The notes beneath the pieces were generated by a model. The model searched no databases and was not told the origin of the DNA. It was given only the letters and a program-made list of their open reading frames with translations. Source: Candidatus Sumerlaeia bacterium (GTDB lineage Bacteria; Sumerlaeota; Sumerlaeia; SLMS01). From it: a stretch of 26,040 nt of DNA. Both the position numbers and the translations under genes were made by a program. The stretch spans positions 1 through 26,040 of the forward strand of contig JBBQYG010000046.1 of NCBI GenBank assembly GCA_038208905.1, written 5' to 3'. This document shows positions 922 to 21,198 of this stretch, in pieces (position 1 is the stretch's first letter; each line of letters starts with the position of its first letter).

Positions 922-3900
922 ATGCTTCCATTCCTCCTCCTGCTTCCATTCTTCGGCGCCGCGCTGCTGATGCTGCTGCCTCGCGAGAGGCTCAGCCCGC
1001 TGATTCCGGCCCAGGCCACCGTCATGGTGACGCTGGGGTGCCTGGCGCTGCTGGGCGTCGCGACATTCCTTCCGCCATCGCTTGAGTTGCAGGAAATCAC
1101 CGGCGAGCGATTCCATCACTTCCACGCGGATTGGATGCCGTCGATCGGGCTGACGTTCTCGCTGTGGCTCGATGGGCCGGCGCTGTTCTTCTGCTGGATG
1201 GTGCTTGGGATCGGGCTGCTGATCTTTGTCTATGCCGGCTTCTATATGGACCCGGCGGATTCGCCGTGGCGGTTTTTTGGCACGATGATGCTGTTCATGG
1301 GATCGATGCTTGGCGTGGTGATGTCGCGCAACGCCCTGTTGATGTTTGTGTTCTGGGAGCTCACGTCGCTCACTTCGTTCATCCTGATCGGCCACTGGCA
1401 CCACAAGGAATCGGCGCGCAAGGGTGCTATGCGCGCCCTGGTGGTGACGGGGCTTGGCGGGCTGTGCCTGATGGCGGGGATCGCGGGGTACTTCTGGATC
1501 CTCTCCACGGCGTCGGCGCCGGGATACGTTTTCGATCCATCGACGGCGCTGAACTGGGACAGCCTGTGGGCGAACCGCGAGTTGCTGCTGAACCACCCGG
1601 CGTCGGTGGCGTGCCTGATGTTGGTGCTGCTGGGGGCGTTCACCAAGAGCGCCCAGTTCCCCTTTCACTTCTGGCTGCCGGGCGCCATGGAGGCCCCCAC
1701 GCCGGTGTCGGCGTTCCTGCACGCGGCGACGATGGTCAAGGCGGGCATCTATCTGCTGGGGCGGCTGTATCCGATCTATTGGAGCTGGGAACTGTGGCTG
1801 ATCCTGGTGGGATCGGCGGGCGTGATCACGATGCTGGTGGGCGGGTTCATGGCGATGACGAGCCGCGACCTGAAGCAGTTGCTTGCGCACTCCACGGTGA
1901 GCCAACTTGGCCTGCTGACCGCGTACTATGGTTTCGGTTTCGACCGCGCGGGCGGCGATAAGCCGTTGCCGATGGACCTGCTGCTGGTGCTGAGCCATGC
2001 GATGTTCAAGGGCGCGCTGTTCATGATCGTGGGCGTCATCGACCACGGCGCCCACACACGGGAATGGACGCGTCTGGGCGGCCTGCGCAAGTACATGCCC
2101 GTGACCACGGTGCTGACGATCGTCGCGTGTGCCTCGATGGCGGGGTTCCCGCTGACGTTTGGCTTCGTTGCGAAGGAACTCTTCCTGAAGACGGCGCTGT
2201 CGCTGCACGCGTCGAGCCCGTTGCTGGCCTATGGGCTTCCCGCGGTGGCAATCATCGCCAGCCTGTTCACGGTTGCCTATTCGCTGCGCATGGCGGTCTC
2301 CCCGTTCTTTGGCAAGCCGCGCGATCCGAGCATCCACGAGCATGACATCTACAGCATTGAGGAACGAGGCGATGCGGAGGACGACGCCCACGATGGCTCC
2401 GATGGCGCGGCGTCGCACGCCCATGCGGCCGGCGTTCACGAGGGCGGTCCGGGACTGCTTATTCCGCCAGGGATTCTGGTGCTGGCGTGCCTGGTGGCTG
2501 GATTTTGGTCACCGTTTCTGGGCGACCTTCTATCGCCGCTGGTGAACGCGCCTTTCTATGGAACCGAGAGCGGGTTCACCGTGGCGTTCTTCCACCATGC
2601 CGACAAGTTGCTCTGGACCGCGGTGTTCCTGTTTGGCGTGGGCGTCCTCGTCTTCCTGGCGGGGAAGCGCATCATGGAATCCTATGAGCGCGCGGGGAGC
2701 CCGGCGATTTTCCGGCACGCCTACGAGGCGATCTTCGACCGAGCGATTCCCTCGCTGGCGGCGTGGACCGCGCGGACGAGCCAGACGCCGTCGCTCCGGC
2801 GCAGCATCGCGGTCTTTTTTGCGGCGGCGTTCGGAATCGTGGTGGCGGCGATGGGCTATTCGGGCTTTGGCCTGCCGGGCGCGATCGCGATACCGGCGGG
2901 CTTGTGGATGGCGACGCTCCCCATCGCGCTGACGCTGCCGTGCCTGTGGGTGGCGGCCACGCATCGCGTGCTGCTGGTGCGCGTGCTGGCGATGGCGCCG
3001 ATTGGATTCTTTGTCGCCATGTTCTTTGTGTTCTTTCGCGCGCCGGACTTGGCGCTGACGCAGATCCTGGTGGAAGTGGTTATTCTGATCGTGCTGCTGA
3101 TGGTGCTGTTCCGCCTGCCCCAGCGCTTCGAGCCGCGTCAGTTGCGCTTCGATCCGACGGCGGGGGCGATTGCGCTGGTGGGCGCGCTGGTCATGGCCGC
3201 GCTGACGTACTCCGCGATGGGAAGCCCGTGGCGCCATGCGCCAACGCTGGAGGGCCAGCCGTCCGTCCGAGACTACTATCTTGGCAATGCGAAATACCCC
3301 GCGATGACCAGCGAGGAAGCCGCCGCGATCGGCTATCCCGGCGCCAGCAACATGCGGTCGGGCGGCGGCACCAACGTGGTCAACGTGACGCTGGTGGACT
3401 TTCGCGGGATCGACACCTTTGGCGAGATCATCGTGCTTGGCATCTCCGCCATCGGCGTCCTGTGCCTGTTGACGGTTAATCGGCGCCGCCGATCGGACAA
3501 CTGGCGCGGGGGAGCCCTGGACGATGTGGGCCATGTGAGCGATATCGTGAATCCCGAGACGCACCGGCAACTGGAAATGCCCTATCGCGCGTGGCCGTCG
3601 CCGTCGCTCCTGCTGTCGGAGATCGGCCGCCTGGCGCCGGGCTTTGTGCTGATCTTCGCGGCGGTGCTTTTCTTTGCGGGCCACAACGCGCCCGGCGGCG
3701 GATTCATCGCCGGCCTGATGGTGAGCGTTGGCCTCGCGATGGTGCTGATCGCGGTCAGCTGGACGCGGTCGCGGCATCTGGAGCGCTTCGACTTTGTGCG
3801 GCTGATCGGCGTGGGTCTGCTGGTGGCCCTGCTGACGGTGGTGGTGCCGGAACTCTTTGGCCTGCCGTTCCTGACCAGCGGCCACTGGCATTTCCACCTG

Positions 3901-4011
3901 CCGCTGCTGGGCGGGGGCGAGTTTGCGACGGCGGCAATCTTCGACCTGGGCGTGTTCCTGCTGGTGGTGGGCGCCACGATGCTCGTGGTCCAGAAGCTGG
4001 GGAAGGAATAG
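922..4011 (+). CDS. mrpA: Mrp Na+/H+ antiporter subunit A' (MrpA-MrpB fusion)
   Basis: NuoL/MrpA motifs FWELTS, TKSAQFPFHFWLPGAMEAPTPVSAFLHAATMVKAG, HSTVSQLG, APDLALTQ, NVVNVTLVDFRGIDTFGE; C-terminal MrpB motifs GHNAPGGGFIAGL and FDLGVFLLVVG. Confidence 0.95.
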   Translation: MLPFLLLLPFFGAALLMLLPRERLSPLIPAQATVMVTLGCLALLGVATFLPPSLELQEITGERFHHFHADWMPSIGLTFSLWLDGPALFFCWMVLGIGLLIFVYAGFYMDPADSPWRFFGTMMLFMGSMLGVVMSRNALLMFVFWELTSLTSFILIGHWHHKESARKGAMRALVVTGLGGLCLMAGIAGYFWILSTASAPGYVFDPSTALNWDSLWANRELLLNHPASVACLMLVLLGAFTKSAQFPFHFWLPGAMEAPTPVSAFLHAATMVKAGIYLLGRLYPIYWSWELWLILVGSAGVITMLVGGFMAMTSRDLKQLLAHSTVSQLGLLTAYYGFGFDRAGGDKPLPMDLLLVLSHAMFKGALFMIVGVIDHGAHTREWTRLGGLRKYMPVTTVLTIVACASMAGFPLTFGFVAKELFLKTALSLHASSPLLAYGLPAVAIIASLFTVAYSLRMAVSPFFGKPRDPSIHEHDIYSIEERGDAEDDAHDGSDGAASHAHAAGVHEGGPGLLIPPGILVLACLVAGFWSPFLGDLLSPLVNAPFYGTESGFTVAFFHHADKLLWTAVFLFGVGVLVFLAGKRIMESYERAGSPAIFRHAYEAIFDRAIPSLAAWTARTSQTPSLRRSIAVFFAAAFGIVVAAMGYSGFGLPGAIAIPAGLWMATLPIALTLPCLWVAATHRVLLVRVLAMAPIGFFVAMFFVFFRAPDLALTQILVEVVILIVLLMVLFRLPQRFEPRQLRFDPTAGAIALVGALVMAALTYSAMGSPWRHAPTLEGQPSVRDYYLGNAKYPAMTSEEAAAIGYPGASNMRSGGGTNVVNVTLVDFRGIDTFGEIIVLGISAIGVLCLLTVNRRRRSDNWRGGALDDVGHVSDIVNPETHRQLEMPYRAWPSPSLLLSEIGRLAPGFVLIFAAVLFFAGHNAPGGGFIAGLMVSVGLAMVLIAVSWTRSRHLERFDFVRLIGVGLLVALLTVVVPELFGLPFLTSGHWHFHLPLLGGGEFATAAIFDLGVFLLVVGATMLVVQKLGKE

Positions 4012-4014
4012 CCC

Positions 4015-4371
4015 ATGGAACTGCTCATCACGCTCTTCGTCTTTGTGCTCTATTTCGGCGGTTTCTATCTGATGATGCGGCGCCATGTGTTCGAGGTGTT
4101 GCTGGGCACGCTGTTGCTGACGCACGCGACCAGCATGCTCCTGATCGCGATGGGCGGATGGAAGCCGGAGGAGAGGCCGCCGATCCTGGTGCCCTCCGCG
4201 GAACTGCCGCTTTCCGCCTATGCGGACCCGGTGCCGCAGGCGCTGATCCTGACGGCGATCGTGATCGGGTTCGGCGTTACCGCGTATCTGGTGGTGCTGA
4301 TCATGCGCGGCAACGAGGAGATGAACGATATGGAGATGACGGAGCGCCCGCGCGAGGAGGACGAGGCGTGA
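4015..4371 (+). CDS. mrpC: Mrp antiporter subunit C
   Basis: DPVPQALILTAIVIGFG signature; three hydrophobic segments; follows mrpA'. Confidence 0.95.
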   Translation: MELLITLFVFVLYFGGFYLMMRRHVFEVLLGTLLLTHATSMLLIAMGGWKPEERPPILVPSAELPLSAYADPVPQALILTAIVIGFGVTAYLVVLIMRGNEEMNDMEMTERPREEDEA

Positions 4372-5906
4372 CGAATCTGATCCTGACTCCAATCCTGCTG
4401 CCGATGGCGGGCGCCGTGGCGTGCCTTTTTCTGCGCGGGTCGCTGGGCGCCCAGCGCACCGTGGCGGGCGCCATCGCGACAGCGATGGTTCCGCTGGCGC
4501 TGTACCTGCTCTCGCTCGTGTGGCGGGACGGCATCCAGGTCGTCCGCGCCAGCATGTGGCCCGGCGGATACGGGATCGTTTTCGCGCTGGATCTGCTGGG
4601 GGCCGTGATGCTGTGCCTGGCCGCGGTCACCTTTGCCGCGTCGTGGTGGTTTGTGGCGGCGGGCGCCATGCCGCGCGCCCAGGAAAAGGCACTCGTGCAC
4701 CCGCTTTTCCTTCTTCTGGGCGCGGGCGTGAACTGGGCATTTACCACGGGCGATTTGTTCAATTTGTTTGTCAGCTTCGAGATCATCCTGCTTTCGAGCT
4801 ACGTCCTGCTGGCGCACGAGAACGGGCGCGGCCAAACGCGCGAAGGCTTGAAGTTCATGTTACTGAACATGATCGCCAGCATCTTCTTCCTGGCGTCGGC
4901 GGGGCTTGCCTACGGCATGTTCGGGGCGCTGAACATGGCCGATTTGGCCGTCCGGATCGCCCAGGCCGGCCAGCCCGCCGCCGCCACGGTACTGGGCACG
5001 ATGCTGTTCCTGACCTTCGGCGCCAAGGCCGCGGTTTTTCCACTCTTCTTCTGGATGCCCGACGCCTATCCCAAGGCGCCGCGCGGCATCGTGGCCTATT
5101 TCAGCGGCATCCTGACGAAGGTGGGCGTGTATTGTCTATACAGGATGTTCCCGCTGATGTTCCCCGCCGCCGAGACATTCGCGGGGTGGTTCCAGCCGTT
5201 GATCCTGGCGGTGGGCGCGGGGACGATGCTGGTGGGCGTGCTCTGCGCGCTGAGCCAGATGACGATGAAGCGCATCCTCTCCTTCCATATCATCAGCCAG
5301 ATTGGCTACATGATCTTTGCGCTCGGCATTTTCACCAAGCTGGGCCTCGCCGCCGGCATCTTCTTTATCATCCACCAGATCATCGTGAAGGCCTCGATGT
5401 TTCTGGTCGCCGATGCGGTCGAGGTGAACGAGGGAAGCCAGGAACTAAGCAAGGTCGGCGGCTTGGTGGCGGTGTATCCCGGCCTCGCAGTGATCTTTCT
5501 CTTCGCATCGCTTTCGCTCGCGGGGATTCCTCCGCTTAGCGGCTTCTATGGCAAGTACGCCCTGGTGGTGGAGGGCCTCGTGCGCGGCCACACGTTCTAT
5601 GTGGTGGTGTCGCTGGTGACGAGCATCCTGACGCTGATGAGCATGATGAAGATATGGCGCTATGCCTTCTGGCGCGACCGCATACGCCCGGCCAACGCGC
5701 CCGTGCACGGCAACCGCGGCGTGATCGTGGCCACCGGCGCGTTGGTGGCTGTGTCGATCGTCGTGGCCGTGTTCAGCGGGCCAATCATGCGCCTTTCCAC
5801 CGCCACGGCGGAGCAGATGATCGACCGCGAGCAGTATGTCTTCGCGGTGCTGGGCGATCGCGGGCTTGCGGCCCTGCGCGCGGCGGAGGAGGCATCGAAG
5901 CCATGA
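4368..5906 (+). CDS. mrpD: Mrp antiporter subunit D
   Basis: GTG start overlaps the mrpC stop (GTGA), in frame with ORF 3591..5906; motifs TGDLFNLFVSFEI, KAAVFPLFFWMPDAY, KRILSFHIISQIGYM, GIPPLSGFYGK. Confidence 0.95.
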   Translation: MTNLILTPILLPMAGAVACLFLRGSLGAQRTVAGAIATAMVPLALYLLSLVWRDGIQVVRASMWPGGYGIVFALDLLGAVMLCLAAVTFAASWWFVAAGAMPRAQEKALVHPLFLLLGAGVNWAFTTGDLFNLFVSFEIILLSSYVLLAHENGRGQTREGLKFMLLNMIASIFFLASAGLAYGMFGALNMADLAVRIAQAGQPAAATVLGTMLFLTFGAKAAVFPLFFWMPDAYPKAPRGIVAYFSGILTKVGVYCLYRMFPLMFPAAETFAGWFQPLILAVGAGTMLVGVLCALSQMTMKRILSFHIISQIGYMIFALGIFTKLGLAAGIFFIIHQIIVKASMFLVADAVEVNEGSQELSKVGGLVAVYPGLAVIFLFASLSLAGIPPLSGFYGKYALVVEGLVRGHTFYVVVSLVTSILTLMSMMKIWRYAFWRDRIRPANAPVHGNRGVIVATGALVAVSIVVAVFSGPIMRLSTATAEQMIDREQYVFAVLGDRGLAALRAAEEASKP

Positions 5907-6394
5907 AGGGCTACCTCTACCTCCTCATCCTCGTCGTCGGGTATGTCCTGGTCGCCGGGGTCACGCCGATGAACGCCCTGTTTGCCGCGGTGATCGCCGT
6001 GGCGATCATCAAGGCGATGCCCCAGTTTCCGGGCCACGAGAAGCTCTCGCTTCCCGGGATCGCCAGTCCTGCCCGGATGGGCCGGATCGCGGCAAACCTC
6101 GCTGCCTTCTCGTGGGATTTCATCGTGGATCTCACCATGGCCAACCTGGTGATCGCATGGGAAGTTTGGACACCGCGGGATCGCTATAGGCCGCGGCTGG
6201 TGGAGGTGAAGGTGGATGACCTCTCGGATTTCGAGACCGCCATGCTCGCCTCGCGCATCACCCTGACGCCGGGCACGCTGAGCATCGACGTCACGGAGGA
6301 CCGCCAGACGCTGATCGTTCACGCGATGTATCCCGGCGAGGACACCGAGGCGTCGCTTCGGCGCCCCATCGACCTCCTCAGGAAGGGACTCTAA
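5903..6394 (+). CDS. mrpE: Mrp antiporter subunit E
   Basis: ATGA overlap with the mrpD stop; ITLTPGTLSIDV and LIVHAM motifs. Confidence 0.92.
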   Translation: MKGYLYLLILVVGYVLVAGVTPMNALFAAVIAVAIIKAMPQFPGHEKLSLPGIASPARMGRIAANLAAFSWDFIVDLTMANLVIAWEVWTPRDRYRPRLVEVKVDDLSDFETAMLASRITLTPGTLSIDVTEDRQTLIVHAMYPGEDTEASLRRPIDLLRKGL

Positions 6395-6398
6395 CCCG

Positions 6399-6677
6399 AT
6401 GGAATACTTCACCCTTCCCCTGCAACTGGCCGCGCTGGCCATCCTGGGCCTGTCGCTGGTCCTTGTCATGTACCGAGTGCTTCACGGGCCCCACATCCTG
6501 GACCGCGTCATGTGTATAGACGGCGTCGCGCTGATCGTGGTGTGCCTGATCGCGGTGTGGAATGTCCGCTCTGGCACCACGTTCTTCTTCGACTCGATCC
6601 TGCTGCTTGCGATCGCGGGCTTTGTGAGCACAGTGGCGGTGTGCAAGTACCTGGAGCGCGGCGATGTCATTGAGTGA
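6399..6677 (+). CDS. mrpF: Mrp antiporter subunit F
   Basis: GPHILDRVMCID motif; GFVSTVA; three hydrophobic segments. Confidence 0.93.
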   Translation: MEYFTLPLQLAALAILGLSLVLVMYRVLHGPHILDRVMCIDGVALIVVCLIAVWNVRSGTTFFFDSILLLAIAGFVSTVAVCKYLERGDVIE

Positions 6678-7032
6678 CGCCCTCTCCATCCTGTGCATCG
6701 CGCTGATCTTCGCGGGTCTGTTCTTCGTGCTGACGGGAACCATCGGCGTGCTGAAGTTCAAGGACCTCTATACGCGCATGCACGCGATCAGCAAGGGGAC
6801 CACCTTTGGCTTCATGTTTGTGCTGATCGGATGCGCCGGGCTGATGGGGACGCCGATGGACATGGGCAAGGCGCTTCTGGCGATCCTGTTCCAGTTCCTG
6901 ACCGCCCCCATCGCCAGCCACATGGTCGGGCGCGTGGCGATGAAGAAGGGCATTCGCCCCATCTCCAGCCCCGACGACGAGGCGCCGGGCGTGCCCGCCA
7001 GCACCGTGATCCGCGCGCCCGGCGCCGAGTAG
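6664..7032 (+). CDS. mrpG: Mrp antiporter subunit G
   Basis: FKDLYTRMHAISKGTTFG and LTAPIASH motifs. Confidence 0.93.
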   Translation: MSLSDALSILCIALIFAGLFFVLTGTIGVLKFKDLYTRMHAISKGTTFGFMFVLIGCAGLMGTPMDMGKALLAILFQFLTAPIASHMVGRVAMKKGIRPISSPDDEAPGVPASTVIRAPGAE

Positions 7033-10165: not shown

Positions 10166-13100
10166 CTAGTTCGCGAAGTACTTGTCCACCAGCGCGTTCG
10201 CCGTCCGCGCCGACAGTTCGTCGTTGCAGAGTTCGTGCTGGGTCATGAGCTGGTTGAAAGCGCCCTTGAGTTCGCGCACGTTCCAGTTCACGCGCTCGGC
10301 GATGACGGCGACAGCCTCGTTGGGGACGTCGATGCGGCGGCGCTGGGCCTCGGCGCGGAGGATCGCCATGCGCGTCTCCAGGTCGGGGGGCTGGATGTCC
10401 ACGATCACCCCCTGGCCAAAGCGCGAGCGGATGCGCATGTCCAGGTGGGCGATGTCCTTGGGCGGGCGGTCGCTGGTCACAACGATCTGGTGGCCGTCCT
10501 GGTGGAGGATGTTGAAGATGTGGAAGAACTCCTCCTGGCTGCGCTCCTTGCCGGCCAGGAATTGCACGTCGTCCAGCAGCAACACATCCGACTGGCGGTG
10601 GCGGTTGCGGAAGGCGGTGATGGTGTTGTTCTGTATCGCGTCGATCAAGGCACTGGTGAAGTATTCCGTGCTGGTGTAGAAGATGCGGATGCTGGGGCGC
10701 TTGGCCTTGAGGGCGTTGGCGATGGCGTGGAGCAGGTGGGTCTTGCCGAGGCCGACCTCCGAGTAGAGGAAGAGCGGGTTGTGGGCCTTGCCCGGCAGGT
10801 CGGCGACGGCCTTGGCGGTGGCGTAGGCGAAGTTGTTCTTACTGCCGACGATGTAGTTGTCGAAGACGTATTCGGGCATGAGGGAGAGCCCGGGAAAGGT
10901 GTCCTCTTCCTCCTCCGCCGGGCGCGACGCGGAAGACGGTGGCGGCGCCAGCATCTGGACGCCGCCGCGCGTGCCGGTACCAGTGCCGGAGGAGAGGTAT
11001 CGATGCATCTCGCGATACTCGGCCAGCGCGCGCTTCTCGTCTCCCATGCCGTCGTAGATGGACGCGCGAAGCCGCCGCGCTGCCAGATTGCCGGGATGTT
11101 CCTTCAGGAGTTCCTCGAGCACGGCGTGGGCGCGCTGGGGCTGGCCAACGCGGGAGAGAACCTCGGCCACGACCAGGCGCTCCTCGTTCGCTTCGGCATG
11201 CATCCCATCGGAGTCGAGTGCCTCGATCAGGACCTGGCGCTGCTCGGGGTCGTCGGGGGTGATGGCGGCGGCCTCGCGAAGCGCGGCAAGGGAGGCGGCG
11301 GAGTCGCCGGTCCCGCGCAGCACCTCGGCGATGGCGTTCAGCTCGCGCGCGGCGTCGGCAAAGCGCTGGGCGTGGCGCAGCAAATCCACGGCGGAGCGGC
11401 GGACGGCAATGTTGCCGGGGTCCTCCGCTGCGAGGCCGCGGATGAGTTCCAGCGCCTCGTCGCGGCGGCCACGCTCGGCCAGCATCCCGGCCAAGTGGCG
11501 GGAGCGGCGGCGCGCGGCCTCCACCTTGCCCGTGGCGCGGAGCATCGTGGAGAATGCGCGGAGAGCCTCCTCGTGGTCGGGCTCCTCCTGCAGAATCTGC
11601 TCGTAGACTTCCTCGGCGCGCTCGGGGGCTTTCTCGTCCTCGTGGTGCTTGGCGAGAAGGAGGAGCTGTGTCGCGGCGTCGCGCGTCTTGCCCGCCGCGC
11701 GGTACAGCTCCACCAGGCGCCCGCGGGCGATGGTGTTGTCGGGGGTCGCGCCCAGCAGTTCGCGATAGAGATCGACCAGGCGGTCCTTTTCCTGGCGCGC
11801 CTCCAGCACCTCGATGGCGGCCTGCAATTCCGCAGCATAGGCGACCGGATCTCCACTGGCCTTGAGGAGTTCTGCCAGGCGGAGGCGGGCTTCCACCTCC
11901 TGAGGCCACGCATCGGCCACGCGGCGCATGGCGGCGATGGCGCGCTGGGGGTTCTTGGAGAGGGCCTGGGCAAGGCGCTCGCAGAGCGGATGAAGCTCCC
12001 CGGCGTTGCGCTCGAGCGCCGCCATTTCGGCCATGCGCTCCAGAGCGTCGGAATTCGCAGGATCCACCTTCAGGATTTCGGCGAGGACGGCCTTCTCCTC
12101 GGCGGGCTTGTTCTCCGCGCGGAGGGCCTGGGCGAGGCGCATGCGGACGGCGCGCTGCTCGGCGGGCTTTGCGAGGCGGCCATAGAGGTCGGAGAGCGTC
12201 CTGAGGATCGGCGTGTGGCCGGGGCGCTGCTCCGCCACCATGTTCGCGCGGGAAAGGGCTCCCTTGAAGTTGGCGCTGACAATCAGGAGTTCGATCTGGT
12301 GCTCGGAGGCGATCAGGAAGTTGTCCATGTCACCCGACGCGAGGAGCGCGTCGCAGAGCGCCTCCACCACGGGGAGATCGGTGGGGAACTCGTGGGCGAC
12401 CTCGTCGAGGAGCGCCGCCGCGCGGGCGTGCTCGCGGTGCTTGGCCATCATGGACGCCAGCTCCAGAAAGGCAACGCGGGCATCGTTGCGGCGCCCGAGG
12501 CGGAGGAGGAGCCGGGCCTGTTCCTCGCGGACGGCGAGGTCGTTGGAATCGCGGGCGACCAGTGTGCCGAGCCAGTGCTCCAACTCGGCCTGGCGCCCGA
12601 TCGCGGAGAGCGTCGCCTGGGCCTCCGCGCGAAGCGCGGCGCAGCCAGGGAGGTCGCCGCGCGATGCAAGCAGCGCGTGGAGGGCGGTGATCGAGGGGAG
12701 GTGGGAGGGATCGCGCTCCAGATGGGCGCGCAAGAGCGGCTCCTGGCGCGTGGACTCCCCCGCCGCGCGCAGGTCGGCGAGGAGGGTCTCCATGCGCACC
12801 TCGGATTCCTCCACGCGCCCGGTGGCCCACAGGAGTTCCACCTCGCGCTCGCGGTCGCCCCACTCGGTGGGCGCCAGCTCGCAGATTTTCTGCACCGCGG
12901 CAAGGGCCGCGCCTTCCTCGAATTCTTCCAGATAGAGGTCGATGGCCTCGCGCAGGAGCACCACGGCCTGCGCCGTGTTTCCCGCTGCCGCGCGGACCTG
13001 TGCCAGCGAGTCCACGGCGCGGCCGGTCCGCGGTCCCGTGTCGAGCCGCTCGTTCAGGATCGCCGTCGCCGCGGCAAGGTCGCCCTTTTCGCAATACAGG

Positions 13101-14299
13101 TCGGAGAGCCGATAGCTGAGTTCGGTGGCGACCTCCTCCTGGCCGAGCTTGGTCTGAATGCGGATGAGAAGTCCCAGGATCGCCGTGTCGGACGGGCGTT
13201 CCCCCACCAGATAGCTCAGCGCCTCCGCGGCCTTTTCCAAACGCCCGGCGGTGGTCATCTCCTCGACCATGTTGAGGCAGTGCTTGAGGTCCTCGGCGGT
13301 GAGGCCGGCGAGGATCGCCAGCTCGATGACCTGAATCCGGGTGTCGTCGTCGCCGCCGTTGATGCGCAGCTTGCGGGCGGCTTCCTTGCTGGCCTCCTGA
13401 TAGCGGCCCTTGGCCTTGAGCCAATCGACGCGGGTCTGGATTTCCTTGCGAGCCTCGTCGCGCAGGCCGCGCTTGAGCATCAGGTCCACCAGCCGCTTGT
13501 GGGCGCCCAGATGATCGCCGCTGACGGAGCGGGCGCGGCGCAGGGCGTCGATGGCCTCGTTTTCCTGCGATGACTCAAGGGCGATATCGGCGGAGCGCAG
13601 CCACTCCGCGATGGACTCGTCTGGGCGGCCGCCAAGGCGGAGGATCTCGGCGAGCTCACGGCGGATCGCTGTGTCGTTCGGCGAGGCGCCCAGATACTCG
13701 CGCGCAACCTCCGCCGCGGCGGCGTAGTCGCGCTCGCGCTTTTCGATCTCCACGAGCCGCCGGACGGCGAGGGCCAGGGTCAGCGGATTGCGCTCGATCA
13801 GGCGGATGCGCAGGATGCCGCGCAGGGCGTCGCGATTTTCGGGCTCGGTGCGCAGAATGCGGAGATAGCGCTTCTCCGCCTCCGACAGCTTCACCTGCCG
13901 GGCGGGACCGGGGGCCTCCGCGTCGCGGAGGAACGTCTCCGCCTCCGTCAGCAGCACCACGCCGTCGCTGCTGCCGGTGTCGCCGACGAGGTGGATGCCG
14001 AACTCCTCCGCCAGATCGGTCGCCGCCTGGTCAAGACTCGTCGCGCGCGCCCGCGCCACCAGATCCAGCAAGTTCCCCATCTGGGTCGGCATGTGGGGCG
14101 GCTCCGACTTGAAGTACTTCGTCTTCAAGTCGATCGTCAGAAAGCGGTCGGTCAGGTCCTGGCAGAGCGGGCAATAGGCGTGCACCGTGTCGCCATCGCG
14201 CTGGATGGACTCGGGGTGATAATCGAGGAACTCGAGCACGTCGAGAGCGTCGAGATTCTCGATCAGCCGGTGCAGTTCGTCTTCCGAATACTTGCCCAT
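10166..14299 (-). CDS. fusion protein: DnaG zinc-binding-like domain + TPR-like repeats + DnaA AAA+ domain (no domain IV)
   Basis: aa ~1-104 follow the zf-CHC2 pattern (YCPLC...GNLLDLV...SLDQAATDLAEEFGI); aa ~110-1100 TPR-like helical repeats; aa ~1140-1377 DnaA domain III (YVFDNYIVG, NPLFLYSEVGLGKTHLL, LLLDDVQF, QEEFFHIFN, TSDRPP, RSRF, PPDLETRMAIL, NVREL); stops before the helix-turn-helix. Confidence 0.88.
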   Translation of the reverse strand: MGKYSEDELHRLIENLDALDVLEFLDYHPESIQRDGDTVHAYCPLCQDLTDRFLTIDLKTKYFKSEPPHMPTQMGNLLDLVARARATSLDQAATDLAEEFGIHLVGDTGSSDGVVLLTEAETFLRDAEAPGPARQVKLSEAEKRYLRILRTEPENRDALRGILRIRLIERNPLTLALAVRRLVEIEKRERDYAAAAEVAREYLGASPNDTAIRRELAEILRLGGRPDESIAEWLRSADIALESSQENEAIDALRRARSVSGDHLGAHKRLVDLMLKRGLRDEARKEIQTRVDWLKAKGRYQEASKEAARKLRINGGDDDTRIQVIELAILAGLTAEDLKHCLNMVEEMTTAGRLEKAAEALSYLVGERPSDTAILGLLIRIQTKLGQEEVATELSYRLSDLYCEKGDLAAATAILNERLDTGPRTGRAVDSLAQVRAAAGNTAQAVVLLREAIDLYLEEFEEGAALAAVQKICELAPTEWGDREREVELLWATGRVEESEVRMETLLADLRAAGESTRQEPLLRAHLERDPSHLPSITALHALLASRGDLPGCAALRAEAQATLSAIGRQAELEHWLGTLVARDSNDLAVREEQARLLLRLGRRNDARVAFLELASMMAKHREHARAAALLDEVAHEFPTDLPVVEALCDALLASGDMDNFLIASEHQIELLIVSANFKGALSRANMVAEQRPGHTPILRTLSDLYGRLAKPAEQRAVRMRLAQALRAENKPAEEKAVLAEILKVDPANSDALERMAEMAALERNAGELHPLCERLAQALSKNPQRAIAAMRRVADAWPQEVEARLRLAELLKASGDPVAYAAELQAAIEVLEARQEKDRLVDLYRELLGATPDNTIARGRLVELYRAAGKTRDAATQLLLLAKHHEDEKAPERAEEVYEQILQEEPDHEEALRAFSTMLRATGKVEAARRRSRHLAGMLAERGRRDEALELIRGLAAEDPGNIAVRRSAVDLLRHAQRFADAARELNAIAEVLRGTGDSAASLAALREAAAITPDDPEQRQVLIEALDSDGMHAEANEERLVVAEVLSRVGQPQRAHAVLEELLKEHPGNLAARRLRASIYDGMGDEKRALAEYREMHRYLSSGTGTGTRGGVQMLAPPPSSASRPAEEEEDTFPGLSLMPEYVFDNYIVGSKNNFAYATAKAVADLPGKAHNPLFLYSEVGLGKTHLLHAIANALKAKRPSIRIFYTSTEYFTSALIDAIQNNTITAFRNRHRQSDVLLLDDVQFLAGKERSQEEFFHIFNILHQDGHQIVVTSDRPPKDIAHLDMRIRSRFGQGVIVDIQPPDLETRMAILRAEAQRRRIDVPNEAVAVIAERVNWNVRELKGAFNQLMTQHELCNDELSARTANALVDKYFAN

Positions 14300-14357
14300 G
14301 GCCTCAATGGCGGGATCCTCACCTCAAGCGGCAAGGCCCCGGGGTCGTTTGGGGGAC

Positions 14358-14407
14358 TTATCCAGATACCTGAAGCCATGAAACTCCGGCGGCAAAGACG
14401 GTGTCAA
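14358..14407 (-). promoter_or_regulatory. putative sigma70 promoter with adjacent DnaA-box-like 9-mer
   Basis: Minus strand TTGACA (14402-14407)-N18-TTTCAT (14378-14383); TTATCCAGA on + at 14358-14366, one mismatch to TTATCCACA. Confidence 0.4.
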
Positions 14408-14757
14408 GAACGGCGCGCCCCGGGGGTCGGGGGGAAATGCGTGGCAATCGGGTGAAGGGATGGACGATGGGGGGAAATTGGGTGCTAAATGCGGTTTGGA
14501 ACGGGGGAGTGGGGCGATCCCGGACAAGAAGCCCACCCCGTCCTCGGCCCTTCCGGATCGCCGCTCGGACTGTCCACCCACGAAATCGCTTGGATTGCAC
14601 CAAGCGGCGGGTACCCGGCGCCCCGATTTTCGTTGGCATAGGACCGCCGCCCCTGACACGGTCGGTTTATTGAGCCGAACCGGCCCGCCCGCGGCGCCGG
14701 GGAGTCTGCGATCCCGCCCCCCCGGGGGGCCCTTTGGAGAGAATTCCCGTGTCCGTC

Positions 14758-16034: not shown

Positions 16035-16823
16035 ATGGATCGCATTTTCAACATCTTCGCCGGAATCGGTGCCGACGACGCCCTCGATATCCTGGCCGTT
16101 TCGCTCATTTTCCTGGCGGCCTTCAGCCTCCTGCGGGAGTCGCGATCCTTTACAGCGCTCCGCGGGCTGGTGGCGGTTATCCTCACGGGTGTCCTCCTGT
16201 GGATTGTCTCCACGATGGGAAACCTGACGGCGACGCGGGCGCTGCTGGAGAAGTCGCTGACCCTGATCGTCATTACCTTCGTGATCCTTTTCCAGAATGA
16301 GTTGAAGAAGGCGCTGACGGACTTCGGCCAGACGTCCTTCTTCCGCCCGTTCCTGCAGGCGACCCAGTTCGAGGCCGACGAGATCGTGAAGGCCGTGATG
16401 CGCATGGCGGAGCGCAAGGTGGGCGCGCTGATCGCCATCGAGCGCCGCAACAGCCTAAAGCCCTATATCGAGGTTGGCACGAGCATCGACTCGGAGGTGA
16501 GCGCGGAGCTGCTGCGCACGATCTTCCAGCTCGGGACGCCGCTGCACGATGGCGCGGTAATCATCAGGAACAATCGCATCGCGGCGGCGGCGTGCCTGTT
16601 CCCGCTGTCGGAAAGCCCGCGCCTTTCCAAGGACCTTGGGACCCGCCACCGCGCGGGGATCGGCCTGACGGAGGAGACCGACGCCGTGACGATCATGTGC
16701 TCCGAGGAGACGGGGATCGTCTCCATCGCCTACGAGGGGCGGCTGGAGCGCAACGAGACGGCGGATTCGCTTCGCGCCAAGCTGAAGATGCTCTTCGAAT
16801 CGCAGGAGGAGTCCGATGTTTAG
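16035..16823 (+). CDS. cdaA: diadenylate cyclase CdaA/DacA
   Basis: Three N-terminal hydrophobic helices; GALIAIER, PLHDGA (DGA motif), GTRHRAGIG (RHR motif), SEETG. Confidence 0.95.
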   Translation: MDRIFNIFAGIGADDALDILAVSLIFLAAFSLLRESRSFTALRGLVAVILTGVLLWIVSTMGNLTATRALLEKSLTLIVITFVILFQNELKKALTDFGQTSFFRPFLQATQFEADEIVKAVMRMAERKVGALIAIERRNSLKPYIEVGTSIDSEVSAELLRTIFQLGTPLHDGAVIIRNNRIAAAACLFPLSESPRLSKDLGTRHRAGIGLTEETDAVTIMCSEETGIVSIAYEGRLERNETADSLRAKLKMLFESQEESDV

Positions 16824-17913
16824 CGGGCAGTCGGCGCCACGCAGCGGGCTGGAGCGGCTCTTGATGGTCCTTGCCGCGCTGTGCTGTGGCACGGGGGTGT
16901 GGCTGGTTGTGCAGATGATCCAGCGCAGCGAGAGCACCCTGGAAGTTCAGGTGGAATCGATGGGGGCCGTCGACACGCGCATCGAAATGGAGCTTGGGCG
17001 GCGGGTGGTTCCCGTGCGATTTTCGTTTCCCTCCACCGAGCTAAACAAGATGAGTTCGGAGAATTTTCGGATTCGCTTCCCCTTTAGCCAGATCCGCGAC
17101 GCCCTGGGCGACAAGCTGGAGGCGAACGGACTTCTGCCGCTTTCCAAGGACATGGTGGTGCCGCTGAATCAGGCGGCGATGGACCTGAGCCGGAACAACA
17201 TCAGCGTGGTGGAGATCCTGGTGCCTCAGGTGAGCTGGACGGCGCGGCTGCGCTATATCCCCGCCCAGATTCGCCCCCGCCTGCAAGGGACGGCGAAGGA
17301 GGGCTTCACCTATGACCCATCGAGCGCGGAGATCGAGGAGTTTGGCGACACCATCGCCGTTCTGACGGAGGAGCGCGAGCGCGAGTACCGCGAGCAGGGC
17401 CTGACGCTGCTGGTCATCCAGACGCTTCCGCTGGACGTGGCGGGGCGTTCGGGTGTGATCCGCGAGGCCGTGGGAGTTGACTTGCCGGAGGGGGTGACCC
17501 TGCTCCCCAACGACCCGGCGCGCCGGACCGTCGTGGTCGAGATCGTGGAGCAGTCGATCACCCGCGTCGTCCGCGATGTGCCTGTGGTCTATACGCCGGT
17601 GACGGCGACGCTGAGGGCCCAGATCATGCCCGACCGCGTGGACGTGGTTCTTCAGGGCCCCGCAAGCGCGGTGAATGCCATCGGGCCCGGAGACATCGTG
17701 TTCAGCTTTCTGGACGTGAGCGAGCGCTCTGGCGAGCGCCGCGAGGTGGCCTTGGTCGCGAGACCCAAGGACGACGCGATCGCGGAGCGCATCCCGAGCA
17801 TCGAGACCCTCCCGCGCAGCGTGACCATCCTGTTCACCGACCTCGCCACCCCGGCGCCGCCCGAACCCGCGCCATCGCCGGCGCTCAAGGTGGATGACCA
17901 GCCGACCAGTTAG
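16816..17913 (+). CDS. cdaR: CdaR/YbbR-like diadenylate cyclase regulator
   Basis: Overlaps the cdaA stop; single N-terminal membrane anchor followed by Val-rich beta repeats (PDRVDVVLQGP, PRSVTI). Confidence 0.75.
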   Translation: MFSGQSAPRSGLERLLMVLAALCCGTGVWLVVQMIQRSESTLEVQVESMGAVDTRIEMELGRRVVPVRFSFPSTELNKMSSENFRIRFPFSQIRDALGDKLEANGLLPLSKDMVVPLNQAAMDLSRNNISVVEILVPQVSWTARLRYIPAQIRPRLQGTAKEGFTYDPSSAEIEEFGDTIAVLTEEREREYREQGLTLLVIQTLPLDVAGRSGVIREAVGVDLPEGVTLLPNDPARRTVVVEIVEQSITRVVRDVPVVYTPVTATLRAQIMPDRVDVVLQGPASAVNAIGPGDIVFSFLDVSERSGERREVALVARPKDDAIAERIPSIETLPRSVTILFTDLATPAPPEPAPSPALKVDDQPTS

Positions 17914-20179: not shown

Positions 20180-20731
20180 ATGACCCCAAAAGACGAAAAC
20201 ACCAAGAAGCCCCGCCAATACGAGATCATCGAGGATGAGCCGGCAATGGTGGTCAGCGAGGCAGCCCCGGTCTATGGCGCCTACGCCCGCCAGAATTCCG
20301 CTCGCGGCACGGTGCGCTCGATGATTTATCGCCTCGACGATTCCGGCCTCGTGGGGGAACTCAACCCCTCGGAGCTGATTCGCACCATCGAGGTAGGGCT
20401 ACCGGTCAGCGAGTTCGAGGATTTGCAGGAGAGCCTTGGCGTGCCAGCGGATCGTCTCGCCCCGCTGCTTGCGATCTCCAAGGCCACGTTGCATCGCCGC
20501 AAGGCGGGGGGCGTGCTGAGCCCCGGCGAATCGGATCGCGTGCTGCGCTATGCCCAGCTCATGGGTCTGGCAATCGATGTGTTTGAATCGGAGGATGCCG
20601 CCCGCGCGTGGCTGAAGGCGCCGCAGGTGGGCCTCGGCGGGGAGGTTCCCCTGAACTATGCCCGCACGGAAGTGGGCGCGCGCGAGGTGGAGGACCTCCT
20701 TGGCCGCATCGAGCATGGAGTCTATTCCTGA
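20180..20731 (+). CDS. Xre/MbcA/ParS-family antitoxin
   Basis: HTH region LLAISKATLHRRK; LSPGESDRVLR; C-terminal ARAWLKAPQVGLGGEVPL...GAREVEDLLGRIEHGVYS. Confidence 0.92.
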   Translation: MTPKDENTKKPRQYEIIEDEPAMVVSEAAPVYGAYARQNSARGTVRSMIYRLDDSGLVGELNPSELIRTIEVGLPVSEFEDLQESLGVPADRLAPLLAISKATLHRRKAGGVLSPGESDRVLRYAQLMGLAIDVFESEDAARAWLKAPQVGLGGEVPLNYARTEVGAREVEDLLGRIEHGVYS

Positions 20732-21198
20732 TGCCGGAGGCTTGGCGGCTGACGCGCGCGAAGTATGCCGCGACTGCCTTTGACGGGGAGGGCGCCCGGA
20801 TGCACGGCGGGCGCTGGAACTCCCGGGGTGTGGGGGTCGTCTATGCGAGCGCGGCGATATCCCTGGCCGCGCTGGAGATGCTGGTCCACATCGACCCCAT
20901 GCTGCCGATTCGCTATGTCACCATCGCCGTGGAATTCGACGACGACATGGTGGAGGAGTTGCCAGTAGGCAGGCTGACCCCGGCTTGGCGAGGCGAGCCT
21001 CCGGGACCCGCCACCAAATCAATTGGGGACGCATGGGCGCGGCGGGCTCGCTCGGCGATTCTCAAGCTTCCCAGCGTGATCGTCCCGAGCGAGTTCAACT
21101 ACCTGATCAATCCCTCGCATCCTGACTTCGCCCGCCTCAGGATCGGAATTCCGGTGGCCTTCGCCTTCGATTCCCGGCTTCTGAAGACGAGGCCGTAA
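20731..21198 (+). CDS. RES-domain toxin (NAD+-targeting, ParT/MbcT-like)
   Basis: TGATG coupling to the antitoxin; GEGARMHGGRWN (R), LAALEMLVH (E), LPSVIVP (S), NYLINPSHPDF. Confidence 0.93.
   Translation: MPEAWRLTRAKYAATAFDGEGARMHGGRWNSRGVGVVYASAAISLAALEMLVHIDPMLPIRYVTIAVEFDDDMVEELPVGRLTPAWRGEPPGPATKSIGDAWARRARSAILKLPSVIVPSEFNYLINPSHPDFARLRIGIPVAFAFDSRLLKTRP

Follow-up and report, generated by a model that had tools for sequence, protein, structure and literature searches.

We identified, in a 26,040-nt stretch of DNA from a Candidatus Sumerlaeia bacterium (contig JBBQYG010000046.1 of assembly GCA_038208905.1; the whole stretch is called the window below, and positions are those of its forward strand), a gene for a 1377-aa protein that joins a head related to the zinc-binding domain of the primase DnaG, a long tetratricopeptide repeat (TPR)-like solenoid and a complete DnaA domain III. 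The fusion is a real gene, conserved within the phylum Sumerlaeota, and a genuine, uncharacterised paralogue of DnaA with a new architecture. DnaA is the near-universal bacterial initiator, and its known relatives Hda, HdaB and DnaC/DnaI are small and much diverged. In the fusion the domain IV that reads DnaA boxes has been lost, DnaA domain I is replaced by the primase-derived head together with a rigid solenoid of ~1000 aa, and a linker stands in place of domain II. These features suggest to us, with a confidence slightly below even, that the fusion may be a DnaA-type co-assembling partner that controls replication initiation with a tethered scaffold. The gene and its parts are:

10166..14299, minus strand: whole gene, 1377 codons and a stop codon (10166-10168), a single unbroken open reading frame (ORF)
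14302..14305, minus strand: Shine-Dalgarno-like GAGG, 3-6 nt 5' of the ATG, read directly
13982..14299, minus strand: head domain (aa 1-106), a degenerate homologue of the DnaG zinc-binding domain (zf-CHC2)
14162..14173, minus strand: CPLC (aa 43-46), what is left of the first zinc knuckle; C43 does not vary within the family and C46 stands at the His-ligand position
10988..13963, minus strand: all-helical TPR-like solenoid (aa 113-1104), 55 predicted helices in ~17 repeats of 54 residues
10889..10987, minus strand: low-complexity flexible linker (aa 1105-1137), predicted local distance difference test score (pLDDT) < 50; the least conserved part, with 1.05 bits per column
10169..10888, minus strand: DnaA domain III, AAA+ core and lid (aa 1138-1377); the protein stops after the lid helix

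The fusion gene and its distribution

An earlier reading of this stretch from sequence only had described one 1377-aa frame with this three-part architecture, and both descriptions hold. The frame is present on the minus strand, its GC content by codon position (GC1/2/3 = 0.73/0.43/0.88) is the same as in real genes nearby, and its start codon agrees in alignment with the starts of relatives. A word-indexed search returned 73 relatives, 58 of which are 1356-1386 aa long and mostly match near end-to-end at 27-47% identity; the others are ~1700-1750 aa or 2120-2195 aa. An assembly chimera, named at the outset as the result that would undo the finding, is ruled out by these 58 relatives of equal length, found on contigs up to 6 Mb, and contigs from other public runs bridge the domain junctions (X1, 10587-14500 with 16 differences; X4, 10742-11360; X2, 10847-11603). 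The organism occurs in freshwater, sediment and mat habitats, and among 20 runs listed no RNA run was seen to carry it.

Among 75 Sumerlaeota genomes, 74 have some match to the query. Within the matches listed, a fusion-type match, meaning an ATPase continuous with the solenoid or within a long frame, was read in 66 of the 75, and a canonical DnaA of 450-600 aa in nearly all. Identity declines with taxonomic distance. When the ATPase alone was used in a full HMMER scan, fusion representatives (50-79% identical) ranked before ordinary DnaA proteins (46-52%). A pattern scan for the head motif across 185,579 species genomes yielded 19 loci, 18 of them named BRC1, Sumerlaeota, Sumerlaeia or Sumerlaeaceae and one named only 'bacterium'; the pattern, built from 8 closer rows, was narrow, so that 19 loci is a lower bound on the range. 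One relative labelled 'Hydrogenedentota' falls in the same 90% cluster as a protein of Candidatus Sumerlaea chitinivorans (AXA36875.1). As far as seen, the architecture is restricted to Sumerlaeota.

A quick, unrooted LG+G4 tree of 89 domain III rows (225 columns) places the fusion ATPase inside the DnaA radiation. The window protein, 27 other fusions and one 530-aa fragment form a single clade (Shimodaira-Hasegawa-like approximate likelihood ratio test, SH-aLRT, 99), and 20 of 21 canonical Sumerlaeota DnaA proteins form a separate one (SH-aLRT 100) nested among other bacterial DnaA, with similar branch lengths in the two groups. These separate, well-supported clades indicate that the fusion ATPase is a distinct and old paralogue. 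The fusion is a vertically inherited, Sumerlaeota-specific paralogue of DnaA.

The statement that no characterised protein has this order of head, TPR array and DnaA module agrees with the literature and database searches, which found none, nor any paper on the Sumerlaeota fusion. A term search of the main text of a comparative genomics study of Sumerlaeota (PMC8092238) found no mention of DnaA, TPR or primase, and the best match in the ESM Atlas (0.75) was to an unrelated AAA family. The C. Sumerlaea chitinivorans protein (2132 aa; UniRef100_A0A2Z4Y8X2) belongs to the same family with the same order of parts; it differs from the window protein by ~750 more solenoid residues and an intact CHC2 zinc site. 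Its annotation, 'Chromosomal replication initiator protein DnaA', is an automatic label with no characterisation behind it. A precedent for a replication-initiation factor fused to TPRs exists in the DciA-TPR fusions of Nitrospinae and Rokubacteria (bioRxiv 10.1101/2022.01.24.477630), in which the fused partner is not the DnaA domain III found in Sumerlaeota.

A complete DnaA domain III

Residues 1141-1301 of the fusion match Bac_DnaA (PF00308) at E = 8.6e-63 in Pfam. The DnaA equivalog model TIGR00362 of NCBIfam matches residues 1123-1374 at 312.8 bits, below its cut-off of 343.9, and this match is confined to profile positions 87-338 of 437, so that domain III alone is covered. A six-frame search of the whole genome with Bac_DnaA_C (PF08299, domain IV) located it in the canonical dnaA of contig C22 alone and nowhere in the window. 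Domain I is also absent, the N-terminus of the fusion having a fold like that of the zinc-binding domain while canonical Sumerlaeota DnaA has the usual N-terminus, and the lid helix lies near the end of the protein in all relatives aligned. The proposal of a DnaA domain III without domains I and IV is therefore borne out.

Searched against the PDB, the last 287 aa match DnaA structure 8btg_A best (E = 1.3e-80, no internal gaps), then 8bv3_A, followed at weaker values by 2z4r (5.8e-57) and 1l8q/3r8f/2hcb (9e-47). Hda (2.5e-10) and DnaI (8.6e-6) are far behind. No part of the fusion is better conserved than the ATPase (3.2-3.6 bits per column), which is ~50% identical to domain III of the DnaA encoded in the same genome. 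We compared individual residues in 98 fusion ATPases and 60 canonical DnaA proteins. The principal positions are:

10739..10753, minus strand: Walker A GLGKT (aa 1183-1187), unchanged in 37 of 37; K and T in 100% of 98 fusions
10565..10582, minus strand: Walker B LLLDDV (aa 1240-1245); D1243 in 99% and D1244 in 100% of 98 fusions
10421..10423, minus strand: R1293, aligned to the DnaA arginine finger, 100% in 98 fusions and 60 canonical DnaA
10274..10276, minus strand: R1342, sensor II arginine in NVRELKG, 100% in 98 fusions

The Walker A Lys and Thr, both Walker B Asp, the sensor I Asp, the box VII Arg, R1293 and the sensor II Arg are each kept at 99-100% in both sets. R1293 aligns with R264 of 8btg_A, which we take to be the arginine finger of DnaA, making R1293 a putative finger. 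The position aligned to I190 of 8btg_A, presumably the isoleucine that contacts single-stranded DNA, is Ile in the window protein. Only three positions differ systematically between fusions and DnaA: T1161 in place of Ala, A1194 in place of Gly, and K1345 in place of Glu. The last, beside sensor II, is a charge reversal: 98% of fusions carry Lys there, and 98% of canonical DnaA carry Glu. The fusion thus shares with the DnaA structures the complete AAA+ core and lid and every hallmark residue, and differs from DnaA in lacking domains I and IV, in scoring below the TIGR00362 cut-off, in forming its own clade and in these three family-wide substitutions. Domain III is complete, and by alignment its predicted catalytic and oligomerisation residues are intact.

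From this conservation the fusion would be expected to bind and hydrolyse ATP and may oligomerise head-to-tail through the arginine finger, as DnaA does, with itself and/or with DnaA-ATP. Because the module is so DnaA-like, its contacts likely involve DnaA or the same single-stranded DNA substrate. We counted the nearly unaltered domain III, with its match to 8btg_A, in favour of a co-assembling partner of DnaA, together with its conserved hallmark residues, the Ile at the position aligned to I190, the absence of domains I and IV, the phylum-wide vertical inheritance among housekeeping neighbours, the steady protein length and the failure to find Hda or YabA.

The same lack of Hda and YabA would also fit an Hda-like inactivator, which we consider improbable. 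In that case the arginine finger would dock on DnaA-ATP and trigger hydrolysis, as in regulatory inactivation of DnaA, and the scaffold would couple the reaction to a cellular cue. The own genome has only three PF00308 matches, namely DnaA, the fusion and a weak DnaC-like protein, with no Hda among them, and YabA was not found in its 4.24-Mb, 94% complete assembly. Like Hda/HdaA, the fusion is a DnaA-family AAA+ protein without origin reading or domains I and IV, and its arginine finger is invariant. Its ATPase groups with DnaA and not with Hda, however, the score against TIGR03420 (Hda) is 96.5 bits against a cut-off of 194.8, and ~1100 extra N-terminal residues set it apart from Hda/HdaA. 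No conserved clamp-binding-like motif, of the sort that the short Hda protein carries N-terminally, was seen, by eye, in the aligned N-terminus or the linker. The fusion's own ATP site is fully conserved; an Hda-type role is not known to need such conservation.

Modules of DnaA domain III also occur in other arrangements. In a library of 1.84 billion proteins, ~25 of the best 150 ATPase matches have two tandem domain III modules (P0075-P0079, P0081, P0082 and others), in proteins of 570-700 aa and in two of 1876-1990 aa. Proteins P0146, P0155 and P0195 (1248-1420 aa) carry a DnaA domain III module mid-protein.

The primase-like head and the solenoid

The first 173 aa of the window protein match zf-CHC2 (PF01807) weakly (E = 0.042, 14.1 bits, cut-off 24.9), and 16 of 18 aligned heads match it with E ≤ 0.01 (best value 1.2e-6). 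A profile built from these 18 heads returned exactly two PDB entries at E ≤ 1, both primases (2au3, E = 0.0028; 1d0q, E = 0.012). An AlphaFold2 (AF2) model of the window protein's own head reached pLDDT 81 and a predicted template modelling score (pTM) of 0.70, and Foldseek with this model found, at E ≤ 0.001, only 1d0q (TM 0.75 on the target, rmsd 2.5 Å) and 2au3. Taken together, the relatives' matches, the profile matches and the modelled structure indicate that the head shares its fold and ancestry with the zinc-binding domain of DnaG.

The sequence-only reading had described this N-terminus as following the zf-CHC2 pattern and had made adoption of the primase fold a test of the whole idea. 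The fold and the homology stand up in the model, its Foldseek matches and the family profile; the zinc site does not. In the window protein the second Cys pair is replaced by S65 and M70, changing the ligands from C-H-C-C to C-C-S-M with the loss of three of the four, and the usual family pattern CP[IV]H...RC[ST]xxxC reads CPLC...KSEPPHM. Among 94 family members that bear the knuckle, 70 have all four ligands, with the His and the second Cys pair; in the remaining 24 Cys or Ser stands in place of the His, and the second pair is missing from all of them. The degenerate type was found in four examined genomes of the window's own family (G000, G044, G046 and G047). The head of this family would act without zinc, and a zinc-free head favours a role in protein contact or structure.

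The head therefore shares with DnaG its modelled fold and a family-level homology, and little else of that protein. The window protein lacks the four-ligand CHC2 site, and its 14.1 bits fall short of the PF01807 cut-off. No TOPRIM (RNA-polymerase, RPD) catalytic domain and no DnaB-binding C-terminal domain appears among the Pfam matches listed (25 of 34 families), and three of the four zinc ligands are gone in the window's clade. A complex prediction for the head with the catalytic domain of the genome's own DnaG gave a score of 0.00, which weighs neither way.

The head is also found on other proteins. Across the phylum, 72 of 75 genomes have 1-5 heads, in proteins of ~140-230, 490-650, 1360-2160 (the fusion) and 2600-3130 aa. 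At a profile threshold of E ≤ 1e-8, three copies occur in the genome of the window (G000), the fusion and two others:

G000:C19:30769-31029, plus strand: 538-aa head and TPR protein, zinc ligands intact (loci L078/L079 pair)
G000:C11:10439-10723, minus strand: 187-aa head-only protein, zinc ligands intact (loci L078/L079 pair)

The family profile matches the zinc finger of the genome's real DnaG at only E = 1.7e-4. Neighbours of the head-family paralogues are unrelated metabolic genes, and no other member of the family is kept as widely or conserved as well as the fusion. The presence of the same head on several TPR proteins that have no AAA+ domain argues for a module particular to the lineage and against one borrowed directly from the replisome. 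The earlier idea that modules of two replication proteins had been joined is correct in that both homologies are real, and needs amending in that the head did not come directly from the replication machinery.

Many TPR models in Pfam match the fusion between aa ~190 and 1100, with TPR_19 (1.7e-42) and TPR_14 (4e-33) among them. The AF2 model computed for aa 100-1137 from 19 sequences is purely helical (pLDDT 86.7, pTM 0.41), the pTM being as expected for a long rod with uncertain overall curvature. These results confirm the long TPR-like middle that had been claimed. Helix starts are spaced 52-55 residues in a long-short-short pattern, and a BLOSUM62 autocorrelation over aa 201-1105 peaks at an offset of 54 (0.206; mean -0.712, standard deviation 0.179), with harmonics at 108, 162 and 216, while the classical TPR offset of 34 reaches just -0.363. 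The best PDB neighbours by Foldseek are long TPR proteins (TTC21B/IFT139 of IFT-A, Ski3, Ctr9, TTC7B and the OGT TPR), which are likewise all-helical, at global TM-scores of only 0.08-0.15 and with a period of 34 rather than 54. Spacing, autocorrelation and structural neighbours together point to a TPR-class solenoid with ~17 copies of a three-helix repeat of 54 residues. The solenoid shows low sequence conservation (1.6-2.3 bits per column, with local maxima at aa 211-300 and 841-1110). The protein's length is nevertheless kept in the 58 relatives despite their low identity, which suggests that the scaffold has a defined geometry. The linker that follows is disordered in the model, least conserved and variable in length across relatives, suggesting a tether like DnaA domain II.

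Genome context and possible roles

The canonical replication genes of the own genome lie on other contigs, DnaA on C22, DnaG with an intact CHC2 finger on C77 and DnaB on C189, and the separate dnaA and dnaG that the earlier reading had wished to see confirmed are thus present. In the window the fusion gene is convergent with a CitMHS transporter gene and divergent from an aminotransferase-cdaA-pdxJ cluster. Its neighbours are housekeeping genes. Upstream, NadC and PanB recur in 6 of 21 loci, and neither adjoins the gene in the window. Downstream in these loci, a small membrane protein and a secreted 690-aa protein recur in 7 each, and DUF374 and RsmD recur as well; none of the four is adjacent to the gene in the window.

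Two of these downstream genes were seen repeatedly (loci L018-L020, L022, L024, L032 and L033). On the same strand 3' of the fusion, seven of the 21 loci encode a protein of ~200 aa that has a single membrane helix and carries two SHOCT-like 'GLLSEEEY' motifs. The 690-aa protein, which has a signal peptide but matches no Pfam family, is found downstream in seven loci, not all of them shared with the first set. Neither gene adjoins the fusion in the window.

We looked for control of the fusion by DnaA boxes and ruled it out. A one-mismatch DnaA-box-like nonamer lies at 14358-14366, 59-67 nt 5' of the start codon; the matches are not above chance (3 one-mismatch boxes in the window against 1.29 expected, with at least 3 in 11 of 100 shuffles) and are not kept in relatives, a box being present within 300 bp upstream in 2 of 19 loci.

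Three other regions of the window, all on the plus strand, deserve mention. Positions 922-7032 hold an Mrp-type cation/proton antiporter operon whose first gene is a fused MrpA/MrpB-like gene of 1029 aa; the ORF at 4421-5539 has no Pfam match, and the MrpD-like gene is probably in another frame. At 16035-17913 the c-di-AMP (cyclic di-AMP) synthase CdaA, with its DAC domain, is followed by an overlapping ORF of 365 aa without a Pfam match, presumably in the position of a CdaR-type regulator. An Xre-like antitoxin (PF20432, PF09722) and an overlapping RES-domain toxin at 20180-21198 form a type II toxin-antitoxin pair.

The suggestion that the fusion might load the helicase, in a primosome or at restart, has lost force. 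The helicase-loading protein DciA (PF05258) exceeds the cut-off in only 1 of 75 phylum genomes, and a fusion replacing it, with a head acting like the zinc domain of DnaI or primase, would resemble DnaI-type loaders, in which a zinc domain at the N-terminus precedes an AAA+ module of the initiator clade. However, 72 of the 75 genomes keep a DnaC/DnaI-like protein in single copy (~240-270 aa, N-terminal CxxC...CxC), and it already accounts for the lack of DciA. In the own genome it is:

G000:C69:16298-17026 (locus L038:1210-1941), plus strand: DnaC/DnaI-like ATPase, 243 aa, with N-terminal CxxC...CxC

This gene is flanked by a gene for a membrane protein and by a deoC-like ORF, outside any IS21 element. 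The fusion shares the initiator-clade AAA+ module with the DnaC/DnaI loaders and matches them weakly (IstB_IS21, 30.5 bits; DnaI, 40 against a cut-off of 228; IstB NF038214, 43 against 200), its ATPase being far nearer DnaA than DnaI or DnaC. We regard a loader as very unlikely.

A sensor against phage of the STAND type (signal transduction ATPases with numerous domains), with the TPRs sensing and the AAA+ module as an oligomerising switch, is hardly credible. TPR arrays and oligomerising NTPases are typical of such sensors (compare PMC12803255), and the fusion has both. Its NTPase is C-terminal and of the DnaA type rather than NACHT or NB-ARC, it has no effector domain, and it is a single-copy gene inherited vertically throughout the phylum among housekeeping neighbours. 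None of the PADLOC-DB 2.0 models gave a match (0 families), and the gene does not lie in a defence island.

If the fusion is a co-assembling partner of DnaA, it would assemble on DNA already chosen or unwound by another factor; it cannot itself read DnaA boxes. The tethered solenoid and head may then bring or hold other factors at the assembly as a positioned platform, and the outcome would be to control replication initiation, whether positively or negatively.

Several observations weigh against such a role. Among 21 loci, no conserved operon partner links the fusion to replication. The head and solenoid module also occurs without any ATPase, in 2-5 paralogues per genome. Nine of the 75 genomes lack the fusion by the queries used; three of the nine are at least 90% complete, two of these without any head domain, and its absence from near-complete genomes argues that the gene is not indispensable. 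The syntenic orthologue in genome G013 is a complete 940-aa head and solenoid gene without the ATPase (L070:7636-10458, minus strand, contig C46), suggesting that the head-solenoid module may have a job unrelated to DnaA. There the gene order is dnaE-panB-nadC-gene-M61 peptidase, with the canonical dnaA ~2.2 kb away on the opposite strand. The residue aligned to I190 is Ile in 57% of fusions against 85% of DnaA, and the deeper nodes of the unrooted tree give no place of origin for the paralogue. As to other genomes, G009 and G062 have head and solenoid giants of 3090 and 2967 aa without an ATPase, the relevant frames run past contig ends in G019 and G074, and G018 has a head fragment only. In G014, G064 and G058 (91, 92 and 66% complete) DnaA alone was found, also with closer queries.

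The scaffolds that bear a head without an AAA+ domain, together with the G013 orthologue, keep a role outside replication in play. The fusion would then be independent of DnaA and oriC, its AAA+ module serving only as a self-assembly switch, driven by ATP, through which the headed TPR scaffolds are polymerised or gated in, for example, a structural, envelope or RNA/protein-complex role. We think this unlikely, if well worth keeping in mind. The expansion of the head and TPR family within the lineage, its ATPase-less size classes, the likeness of the solenoid to generic complex-assembly scaffolds such as TTC21B of IFT-A, Ski3 and Ctr9, and the lack of replication genes next to the fusion all speak for it. 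Yet a mere switch would have no need to keep ~50% identity with DnaA domain III throughout a phylum, all hallmarks intact, and within the head family it is the fusion that is most widely kept and best conserved.

A fuller version of a role in initiation, to which we give a comparably low probability, has two DnaA-type ATPases at work in Sumerlaeota. The canonical DnaA would read the origin, and the box-blind fusion would copolymerise on the unwound strand, where a solenoid of fixed length and a primase-derived head would position or meter parts of the replisome, with the headed scaffolds that lack an AAA+ domain as accessory factors. If true, this would make the fusion a new class of co-initiator.

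Nearly a whole phylum thus keeps a second, almost unaltered DnaA ATPase that is blind to DnaA boxes and tied to a 1000-aa scaffold. The primase zinc-binding fold has been reused here as a general head domain, including a zinc-free derivative, and a recurring mislabel in the databases, in which relatives are named 'chromosomal replication initiator protein DnaA', can be corrected. If the fusion co-assembles with DnaA, it would represent a new mode by which the initiator filament is regulated or extended, and it would give a naturally occurring 'domain III only' protein with which to study how DnaA oligomerises on single-stranded DNA.

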